A stretch of DNA of 15,423 nucleotides, from positions 1-15,423 of IMG/VR virus record IMGVR_UViG_2698536618_000026. The stretch is one strand, 5' to 3'. Under the pieces are notes generated by a model. It was not told the DNA's origin and made no database searches. It was given only the letters and a program-made list of their open reading frames with translations. Shown here in pieces: positions 2,133-3,932 of this stretch. A program made the position numbers and the translations under genes. The DNA comes from a virus. Taxonomy: Duplodnaviria; Heunggongvirae; Uroviricota; Caudoviricetes. Position 1 is the first letter of the stretch, and every line of letters starts with the position of its first letter.

Positions 2133-2876
2133 TCATTGATTCACCTCCTGCCTGTCGTCCGGCATTCGCTCACTACAGCTTATCCAACTATCCGGAGTTA
2201 CCGGAACTTGCGGAATGGCTGTCTGCTCTCGAACGTCATTAGGCGCTATAGGTTCTGCTGCCAACTGACTGACATATTTGTTAATGGTAACGATAAGCTC
2301 TTGCTCAGCCTCATCCAGACAATCACCGATACCTCGCCTGTCACCGTCAAAATCATCGAAATCGGCACGAATCTTGGCAACCTTCTGGATTGCGGACAAC
2401 ACCTCACTAGGAATTACCGGATAGTTGGTTGACGTTTCCGCGATTTCCCGAAAATTATTGGTTGACGAATTCTTGTTTTCCCGAAAGTTTCCGGACTGAA
2501 GCATGGCGGCGCGGCAGGCGTTCCAGCCAGCAGTTCGCCCAAGCGCGTAAACTTCAGAGGGTTCAAGATAATCAATGTCATGCCCGTCCTCATCGTCGTT
2601 CTCAGGTAATGCAGCAGGTACTACCGGTACTGGCGGGGCGGCATAAACAGGAATAACGTCCGCTTGCTCTTTATTGCTTTCATCCGTTAAAGCCCAGAAT
2701 AATTTCCCGGCCGGATGTTTGAAAATATAAGCAACTGGTTCTGCTTCCAGCGATGCCAGAGCAATTCGTGCCAGTTCTTCCGCTTCTTCTGCTGGCAGTA
2801 CAACGTTGCTGCCCGGTCTGTATGTTTCGCGCCACTGCTTGATTGTCAGCAGTCGCCCTTTGGTAATAGTGATCAT
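2133..2876 (-). CDS. Phage protein with C-terminal DUF551-like motif
   Basis: 247-aa ORF with GAAGGAAA SD before the ATG at 2876. C-terminal WISCSERMP resembles the DUF551 signature. The start overlaps the upstream gene's stop (ATGA). Contains an internal ~33-bp tandem duplication. Confidence 0.6.
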   Translation of the reverse strand: MITITKGRLLTIKQWRETYRPGSNVVLPAEEAEELARIALASLEAEPVAYIFKHPAGKLFWALTDESNKEQADVIPVYAAPPVPVVPAALPENDDEDGHDIDYLEPSEVYALGRTAGWNACRAAMLQSGNFRENKNSSTNNFREIAETSTNYPVIPSEVLSAIQKVAKIRADFDDFDGDRRGIGDCLDEAEQELIVTINKYVSQLAAEPIAPNDVREQTAIPQVPVTPDSWISCSERMPDDRQEVNQ

Positions 2877-3388
2877 GCCGTGTTTCCTTCTTTCTTATTA
2901 ACAATCACACCGTCATATATTTCATTAAGGTGCCCTCTCAACTCCATGCGCCTTAATGCAGATAACATGTAATCGCATTCAACCTGTTTATTCCCGGTAA
3001 ATGGCTTATCGTCAGGATTACCCCAACAGCAATTACCCCTGGGCCATCCATGTACTTTCCGTACTCTTCCGTTAACAACGTGAAGTAATCCCCAGCCGGG
3101 AGGTAAATCCTCAACTGAAATAATTTCCGGCTCACTAATAAAGAATCGCCAGTCGCCCATGCCAAGTGAGGGATTTTTACGGAAACGCTTTTTTCTATCT
3201 GCCAACAAGTCAGCACGAGAACACTTCGCCTCTATCAGACATGATGCTGAATTTCTGAATCCCATAGCATCTGGCTGTTCTCCGGTACTGGTTACAGCAA
3301 CAAAGCGGTCATGAAAACAAACCTTGAACCCGTTGCGCTTAAGGAACTTGTACGCAATCTGACAGAGTTCGCGGTGTGTTAACGCCAT
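2873..3388 (-). CDS. PD-(D/E)xK nuclease-fold protein (MmcB-like, tentative)
   Basis: Track ORF 2873..3418; preferred start is the ATG at 3388 (AAGGAGAG SD 6 nt upstream). Motif EQPDAMGF...SCLIEAKCSRADL fits a PD...(E)xK active site; the overall pattern resembles the MmcB/DUF1052 family. Confidence 0.55.
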   Translation of the reverse strand: MALTHRELCQIAYKFLKRNGFKVCFHDRFVAVTSTGEQPDAMGFRNSASCLIEAKCSRADLLADRKKRFRKNPSLGMGDWRFFISEPEIISVEDLPPGWGLLHVVNGRVRKVHGWPRGNCCWGNPDDKPFTGNKQVECDYMLSALRRMELRGHLNEIYDGVIVNKKEGNTA

Positions 3389-3389
3389 A

Positions 3390-3932
3390 TCACTCTCCTT
3401 TGATGCGAATGCCAGCAACGCGTAATGCGTGTTCTAGGTCAATCAGGTAAAGCCAACTGCCATTTTCTTTAGGTATCATGACATGTCGCTCATCTGCATT
3501 TATCGGGTGTCCATATCGAAGGTTGTAGCGAGTCGGTAATTGAACTTCCCGCGCTTCCAGTTCAGCAATACGCTTGCTCCCATCAGAGATAACTCCCTCG
3601 TAATACGCACGCTGCTCGTTGAGTTTTGATTTTGCTTCCTCAAGCTCAACACGCAGCTTCCCTACCGTTAGCGCAATCTCCTCGTTCTCCTGGTCACGGC
3701 GTTTTATGTATTGCTGGTTTCTTTCCCGTTCATCCAGCAGTGCCAAAGCAACCTTTGGATTAAAGACAGCAATAAATTCAGCGTTGTTTTTCAGAACGTG
3801 TTGCGCAATGGCCTGACTACTTAGTCGGACCTCATAATCACGTGCGCCACGGTGTGGTTTATATGAGTCCCAGTCTCCCCACGTTGCTTTCTCTGCCGCT
3901 TCACGCAGTGCCTGATAGTTAATCTCGTTCAT
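3390..3932 (-). CDS. Ead/Ea22-like family protein
   Basis: Track ORF 3390..3956 begins with TTG; the in-frame ATG at 3932 gives MNEINYQALREAAEKATWGDWDS..., the typical Ea22-like N-terminus, followed by a coiled-coil-like middle. Its stop lies 1 nt from the downstream gene's ATG. Confidence 0.6.
   Translation of the reverse strand: MNEINYQALREAAEKATWGDWDSYKPHRGARDYEVRLSSQAIAQHVLKNNAEFIAVFNPKVALALLDERERNQQYIKRRDQENEEIALTVGKLRVELEEAKSKLNEQRAYYEGVISDGSKRIAELEAREVQLPTRYNLRYGHPINADERHVMIPKENGSWLYLIDLEHALRVAGIRIKGE

Follow-up and report, generated by a model that had tools for sequence, protein, structure and literature searches.

A predicted MmcB-related nuclease in the early-left operon of a lambda-like phage, encoded one nucleotide behind an Ea22-like gene

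What does a small nuclease-like gene do in a phage when it starts one nucleotide behind the stop codon of an Ea22-like gene, in a left arm where the classical recombination genes are missing? The question is raised by the IMG/VR virus record IMGVR_UViG_2698536618_000026 (Caudoviricetes), of which positions 1 to 15,423 were analysed; this whole stretch of 15,423 nucleotides (nt) is called the window below. A preliminary description, made from the letters alone, had proposed that the nuclease and the coiled-coil Ea22-like protein act together, and had singled out the missing recombination module. I found that the nuclease is best placed beside the bacterial MmcB repair nucleases, while the Ea22 link and the missing recombination genes are ordinary features of lambda-like phages.

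The nuclease gene and its relatives

The gene and its catalytic core are located as follows.

2873..3388, minus strand: nuclease gene, 171 amino acids (aa), MmcB-like phage family of PD-(D/E)xK proteins (ATG 3388-3386, TGA 2875-2873)
3197..3310, minus strand: codons of the catalytic core, D27-D64, with invariant or near-invariant columns, aligned to the 3dnx/MmcB motif VD...IECKSSRADFxxD
3310-3308, 3280-3278, 3271-3269, 3232-3230 and 3226-3224, minus strand: codons of the core residues D27, E37, D40, E53 and K55, respectively

The product of this gene is very probably a small metal-dependent PD-(D/E)xK DNA endonuclease, as predicted from its sequence and a structural model. The residues D27, E37, D40, E53 and K55 are invariant in 32 of 32 homologs with 58-96% identity. 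In 107 more divergent representatives (30-61% identity), D40 never varies, and conservation is at least 90% for each of E37, E53 and K55. K55 is followed by the signature S57-R58-x-D60-x-x-x-D64, which is common to MmcB, and a conserved S-R-x-D-F-x-x-D stretch lies downstream of K55 in the 107 representatives. Conservation is strong along the entire protein, including the C-terminal helices. In the alignment-based AlphaFold (AF2) model (predicted local distance difference test score, pLDDT, 84.4; predicted template modelling score, pTM, 0.79), the alpha-beta-beta-beta-alpha-beta core fold of the PD-(D/E)xK superfamily is found. D40 immediately precedes strand 2, and strand 3 carries E53 and K55; this is the D...(D/E)-x-K arrangement on strands 2 and 3 expected for the superfamily. 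Thus, the PD...(E)xK motif of the preliminary description holds as D40...E53-x-K55 in close and divergent homologs alike; a loss of motif residues among homologs, named there as an argument against a nuclease, was looked for and was not seen.

Which known nucleases are the closest relatives? Direct family scans with the nuclease gave no match in Pfam, NCBIfam or PADLOC. The PHROGs matches were families of unknown function, plus a single weak match to a "DNA repair protein", and a single-sequence search of the Protein Data Bank sequences gave chance matches only. In PADLOC-DB, there was no match for the nuclease at E<=0.1 and only a chance-level coiled-coil match for the Ea22-like gene. The window protein is not a member of PF06319, the MmcB-like family, by the Pfam measure, since no match was found at E<=0.1 and the gathering score of 22 bits was not reached. 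PF06319 matches are weak and occur in 26 of the 107 relatives (best E 2.9e-4).

However, the profile and structure comparisons lead to MmcB. The structure 3dnx was given as a DUF1052 structure in a superfamily survey (PMC3424549), and its core matches PF06319 at E=5e-15. A profile of the phage family (A2, hmmsearch) finds 3dnx at E=6.8e-6 and then Hjc at E~0.07, and the modelled nuclease matches 3dnx structurally over the whole domain. When A2 was compared using hhalign with an alignment of 23 PF06319 proteins (A6), the probability was 97.1% (E=6.6e-11, 57 columns); the A6 proteins are partial (<=102 aa), and this comparison covers the N-terminal catalytic half only. The structural neighbours among viral models (BFVD) include several named MmcB-like DNA repair protein. 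Because of the link between 3dnx and PF06319, the profile match, the hhalign result, and the viral-model neighbours, the label "MmcB-like PD-(D/E)xK" is well supported. The preliminary description had already used the name MmcB-like, which is upheld by the model (pLDDT 84) and by the 97% hhalign probability against the MmcB-family alignment. These comparisons of sequences and models support the view that the family is an unannotated phage-borne sister of the bacterial MmcB/DUF1052 repair nucleases, lying outside the curated models. It appears to be more distantly related to the archaeal Hjc resolvases, to which the window nuclease gave neither a match with the Pfam hidden Markov model nor a close structural match. 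The family is an unannotated, abundant branch of the known MmcB/Hjc-type PD-(D/E)xK nucleases and will not surprise a specialist. Its placement as a sister of MmcB gives it a testable function and makes a case for a new family model.

The family comprises 3,296 clusters at 50% identity (E<=0.001), and 642 phage records contain matches to it. At 95% identity or more, the nuclease is present in 931 of 5,426 complete Escherichia coli genomes (17%). The E. coli genome search found 1,300 near-identical copies, and about 250 of them are on plasmid records of 58-98 kb, which suggests carriage by phage-plasmids besides integrated prophages. In lytic phages, a homolog is located between the helicase and primase genes with no Ea22 gene anywhere (Vibrio phage OPA17; orf107 of Kuttervirus Cba120), and this placement recurs in two further loci (L098 and L099). 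The lytic-phage homologs lie at 4016-4480 (L004) and 3980-4597 (L005). In OPA17-like Vibrio phages, where helicase genes precede it, and in Ackermannviridae (Cba120 orf107), the homolog overlaps the beginning of the DNA primase gene or directly adjoins it. The Cba120 homolog has only the N-terminal ~113 residues in common with the family; its C-terminal half is different. Although many Shiga-toxin phages and hundreds of lytic phage genomes carry the gene, besides about 17% of the complete E. coli genomes, it goes as "hypothetical", is mis-named, or is called a pseudogene. In GenBank phage records, the nuclease is mis-named "adenylosuccinate synthase" (P400), and its downstream neighbour "valyl-tRNA synthetase" (Lys8385Vzw).

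Possible roles in phage replication

What would such an enzyme do for a phage? Overall, the explanation that I regard as probable is that of an MmcB-sister phage nuclease acting on damaged or branched DNA in phage replication. Its assignment to a role, namely the incision of damaged or branched DNA during phage replication, is the tentative part of this explanation. MmcB is a PD-(D/E)xK endonuclease conferring resistance to mitomycin C and cisplatin, and it is thought to incise damaged or branched DNA in crosslink repair (PMC9578287, a review). Following induction or infection, the phage gene would be transcribed as part of the early-left operon. The nuclease may then cut damaged or branched DNA, such as stalled forks and crosslinked or recombination-type intermediates, while the phage replicates. 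The resulting ends would pass to the host RecBCD and RecA, on which a recombinase-less and Chi-rich prophage would rely. The position of the homolog between helicase and primase in lytic phages is consistent with this role, as are the helicases, DNA methylases, NinB, NinG, SSB, and RusA encoded next to it elsewhere.

Several points weigh against this explanation. The substrate and the role are both read from homology and gene context only, and the variable gene context would equally fit a selfish or accessory gene. The window protein reaches no Pfam model, with weak PF06319 matches only in the relatives counted above. RefSeq lists the nuclease locus as a frameshifted pseudogene, yet the open reading frame (ORF) is, from its sequence, intact and of full length for the family. 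To my knowledge, the biochemical activity of MmcB itself is not defined. Should damaged or branched DNA indeed be its substrate, the nuclease could affect the yield of Shiga-toxin (Stx) phages after genotoxic induction.

A more specialised version is possible, albeit doubtful: the nuclease may be a dedicated repair or fork-processing enzyme, letting a prophage induced by DNA damage replicate a crosslinked or adducted template. Mitomycin C, the agent against which MmcB protects, is also the classical inducer of Stx prophages. The task of such an enzyme would be the unhooking or incision of lesions or stalled forks; in recombinase-less phages, it would also hand the ends to the host RecBCD via the Chi-rich right arm. 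If this is true, the nuclease would set the yield of phage and Shiga toxin after genotoxic induction. It would also stand for a widespread, previously unnamed replication-accessory family, kept by lytic Ackermannviridae and Vibrio phages between helicase and primase.

Is the enzyme a Holliday-junction resolvase instead? An Hjc-like dimer might resolve branched concatemers before packaging and fill the place of RusA or Rap/NinG, and neither a RusA nor a NinG gene was detected in the nin region of the window. DUF1052 has been tied to archaeal resolvases by profile analysis (PMC1189080). Weak matches to the Hjc family PF01870 occur in 43 of the 107 family members (best E 1.3e-4), and the family profile finds 1hh1 and 4tkd, structures of Hjc, at E 0.07-0.09. 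However, the structural score to Hjc is low, and elsewhere the nuclease gene directly adjoins NinG (two loci) or RusA (one locus); thus, it coexists with dedicated resolvases. The window also holds another candidate nin-region nuclease, DUF968/HNHc_6, at 13259-14254. A resolvase is therefore an unlikely identity for the 171-aa protein. The DUF968 protein has a C-terminal HNH-type motif (plus strand; DUF968 E=5e-81, HNHc_6 E=5e-6), and its gene occupies the slot in the nin region that is usual for RusA or NinG. It may be the late branched-DNA nuclease of this phage.

The patchy distribution of the family, its highly variable neighbours, and its precise insertion at gene boundaries, together with its presence in 17% of the complete E. 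coli genomes including the places on plasmid records, would also fit an offensive, defensive, or selfish nuclease. Such an enzyme might degrade host DNA, exclude superinfecting phages, or act as a mobile homing-type endonuclease. This is quite unlikely in view of the conserved helicase-primase position in strictly lytic phage groups, the strong full-length conservation including the C-terminal helices, and the lack of any match to the PADLOC defence models. Moreover, the gene lies inside the early-left lytic operon and no promoter-like site was recognised immediately upstream of it; for these reasons, expression in the lysogen is unlikely.

The Ea22-like neighbour and the missing recombination genes

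The surroundings of the nuclease gene are as follows.

3390..3932, minus strand: Ea22-like gene, 180 aa (Pfam PF13935 Ead_Ea22, residues 3-126, E=5.9e-36, 124.5 bits against a cut-off of 27)
3389..3413, minus strand: gene-boundary junction, with the ~7 last codons of the upstream gene (GIRIKGE*), AAGGAG at 3400-3395, TGA at 3392-3390, and the spacer at 3389
2133..2876, minus strand: DUF551-ended gene, 247 aa (Pfam DUF551 at residues 230-245), whose ATG overlaps the nuclease stop codon (ATGA, 2876-2873)
3919..4203, minus strand: DUF4752 gene (Pfam PF15944, E=6.5e-40), overlapping the Ea22-like start by 14 nt in the same packed early-left operon

The Ea22-like protein has the N-terminal and coiled-coil domain of the Ead/Ea22 family (PF13935). 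Within its gene, a 190-bp stretch (3556-3745) has 92-94% DNA identity to lambda ea22 (92%) and to the gene that precedes the nuclease in phage EC.W1-9. The lambda-type C-terminal domain, whose structure was solved by nuclear magnetic resonance (PMC10834534), was not found; the 54 aa before GIRIKGE, compared by eye, are unlike lambda Ea22. Variation of this domain between phages has already been noted (PMC7093339, PMC10834534). When the last 54 aa were searched using phmmer against the upstream-neighbour proteins, no match was obtained, and a C-terminal "adaptor" shared among the upstream neighbours was therefore rejected.

On the minus strand, the junction reads ATC AAA GGA GAG TGA T ATG GCG. 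It was confirmed that a single base (3389) separates the TGA (3392-3390) of the Ea22-like gene from the nuclease ATG (3388-3386), as the preliminary description had said. The ribosome-binding site AAGGAG lies inside the Ea22-like gene, 7 nt before this ATG, and the ATG at 3388 is the start point of all the homologs in the alignment. The junctions in the operon have spacings of -14, -11, +1, -4, +3, and +5 nt. The emphasis once placed on the 1-nt spacing is hence not warranted, since tight junctions are the rule in this operon. Between the PL-like promoter (minus strand, 6407-6379) and the remainder of the left operon, a further two helix-turn-helix genes are found, with products of 71 aa and 147 aa (minus strand, window 5427-6325 and 6471-7166); they adjoin the LexA/S24-type repressor. 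Neither an N-like antiterminator nor kil or cIII could be recognised.

Does the coupling mean a partnership? A joint action had been proposed; on this reading, the nuclease would form a two-component module with the coiled-coil Ea22-like protein, and coupling would ensure matched synthesis. The 1-nt spacer and the position of the ribosome-binding site are in its favour, and so are the nearest relatives. Five close relatives from E. coli and Shigella were examined one by one, and in 5/5 a gene lies 1 nt upstream of the nuclease. Four of these genes are Ea22-like: that of the window, those of EC.W1-9 and Lys8385Vzw as found using phmmer, and that of 75/02 Stx according to its annotation. In POCJ13, the corresponding cassette position is taken by a 316-aa gene that is unannotated. 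The window's order of DUF4752, Ea22, nuclease, and DUF551 genes recurs in Shigella phage 75/02 Stx. The close inspection compensates for the pattern used to scan viral contigs ([IV]E[CV]KxSRxDF), which misses the IEAKCSRADL of the window itself and under-samples the closest relatives (>=95%) in the set of 110 loci.

Across the family, however, the partnership is not supported. I compared 110 upstream and 112 downstream neighbours at related loci (222 immediate neighbours in all). Only 11 of the 110 upstream neighbours are Ea22-like; others are SNF2- and ResIII-type helicases, DNA methylases, DUF551 proteins, and NinB. Downstream, DUF551 proteins, dATP/dGTP pyrophosphohydrolase, NinG, NinB, SSB, RusA, and YbcO are found. 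Proteins similar to the 247-aa downstream gene product (full-length query) flank the nuclease on either side, downstream at 14 loci and upstream at 9. Junctions of 5 nt or less are general, whatever the neighbour (71/110 upstream and 70/112 downstream), and the commonest downstream junction is a -4 overlap (45/112 loci). The lytic phages carry the nuclease without any Ea22, and the upstream partner proteins vary in length (180, 182, 254, and 316 aa) and in their C-terminal domains.

The DNA comparison points in the same direction. Homology with EC.W1-9 and Lys8385Vzw starts at 3411-3413, about 25 nt before the nuclease ATG, and the conserved block extends from 3413 to 2734 of the window (to 2734-2739 in L121 and L122), ending ~140 nt inside the downstream gene. 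Of that gene, the first ~47 codons (2734-2876; MITITKGRLLTIKQWRETY...LASLE) move with the nuclease cassette, while the remainder is exchanged (L121, L122, and L006). The same ~24 nt (GGCATTCGCATCAAAGGAGAGTGA, encoding AGIRIKGE*) terminates lambda ea22 (L123, 1255-1280), where nothing is coupled behind it and ea8.5 begins 191 nt further on. In VT2phi_272, an unrelated 168-aa gene follows the Ea22-like gene with the same 1-nt spacing. Thus, the nuclease gene behaves as an independently exchanged cassette. The junction is a generic boundary sequence which bears a ribosome-binding site and behind which cargo genes are swapped, and for this reason the 1-nt coupling does not indicate a two-protein machine. 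A joint action of the two proteins is improbable.

The boundary sequence also offers a simple explanation for an old puzzle. The significance of the conserved "+GE" tripeptide at the C-terminus of Ea22 proteins has been called unknown (PMC7093339). Its codons, AAA-GGA-GAG, are the Shine-Dalgarno sequence for the next gene; the ending may thus be explained by this double use. The endings of other neighbours upstream of the nuclease (EAE, EVK, or GGE) would reflect the same role.

Is the missing recombination module filled by the nuclease? As had been described for the left arm, no exo, bet, gam, recE, recT, or erf gene was detected: no ORF in the left arm or the rest of the window matches the Exo, Bet, Gam, RecE, RecT, Erf, Sak, or Sak4 families in Pfam or PHROGs. 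A conventional module elsewhere in the prophage, which would have removed the puzzle, was likewise not found among the window ORFs. The one sizeable protein of unrecognised kind in the window, p192 (4462-5040), has a confident model without a recombinase-like fold, and no annealing-protein family occurs among the 222 immediate neighbours of the nuclease homologs. Such an absence is ordinary. Of 275 lambdoid genomes, 51% have a recombinase and 49% do not, and Chi is strongly over-represented in the latter between the replication origin and the packaging site (Bobay et al., PMC3784561). The window contains 11 Chi octamers (GCTGGTGG), where 0.60 are expected, and 0 of 200 shuffles reach 11.

Chi positions: 1769, 8106, 9595, 9695, 10367, 13137, 13490, 13761, 13890, 14777, 15094

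The plus strand bears nine of the 11, and 10 are clustered at 8.1-15.1 kb, over the replication and nin region. By sequence, the window strikingly fits the recombinase-less, Chi-rich class of lambdoid phages recruiting the host RecBCD. Furthermore, 75/02 Stx has a 96%-identical nuclease alongside exonuclease, RecT-like, and Gam-like genes; because of this, the nuclease is not tied to the missing module. The significance formerly given to the missing module does not stand, and the nuclease appears to be no substitute for a Red, RecET, or Erf module. Two unfounded ideas are thus removed, the Ea22-nuclease machine and a nuclease replacing the Red module.

The RefSeq annotation of the locus is at odds with its sequence. 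In NZ_CP050998.1 and NZ_CP148357.1, PGAP gives the equivalent of window positions 3210-3388, the first 60 codons only, as a "frameshifted" pseudogene (12210-12388 in L001), and the Ea22-like gene (window 3555-3932; 12555-12932 in L001) is labelled "incomplete, missing C-terminus". However, over 2873-3388 the window and NZ_CP050998.1 do not differ in their DNA, which encodes a 171-aa ORF with no interruption. The DNA is identical over the same positions in E. coli O39:NM F8704-2, where the prophage adjoins mlrA. The decaying pseudogene implied by the frameshift calls is highly improbable and was rejected at the sequence level, since the ORF is unbroken, aligns from end to end with a cluster of 171-aa proteins (1,363 member sequences; 96% identical) and with homologs as low as 58% in identity, and retains all the catalytic residues. 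Both RefSeq labels appear to be annotation artefacts, which likely originate from mosaic reference proteins.

Comparison with known systems

How does the locus compare with known systems? Lambda Ea22, a pro-lysogenic protein of the exo-xis region (PMC7093339, PMC10834534), shares the N-terminal and coiled-coil part and the terminal AGIRIKGE* with the window protein. In contrast, the window protein's C-terminal domain is unrelated, and lambda ea22 has no coupled gene behind it.

The lambda Red, RecET, and Erf modules occupy the same neighbourhood as the nuclease, namely the early-left operon from the immunity region to int. Lambda Exo and RecE are PD-(D/E)xK-fold enzymes, too. However, the window has no annealing protein or Gam partner, and among the matches of the nuclease, nothing resembled Exo or RecE in sequence or fold.

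Hjc (PF01870; 1hh1, 1ob8, and 2wcw) shares the PD-(D/E)xK core and the strand-3 motif IE-x-K-S-R with the nuclease, while the sequence matches are weak.

The closest known system is MmcB (PF06319/DUF1052/COG5321), represented by 3dnx (SPO1766) and Caulobacter crescentus MmcB. Compared with MmcB, the window nuclease has an extra insertion of ~8 residues ahead of strand 4 and a different C-terminal signature (KP...NKQxEC...RR). SOS regulation and protection against crosslinkers are known for Caulobacter MmcB only (PMC9578287). MmcB genes are chromosomal, mostly alphaproteobacterial, and SOS-regulated (PMC3424549, PMC9578287), whereas the phage family sits in phages and prophages of Gammaproteobacteria and other bacteria, within early or replication operons.

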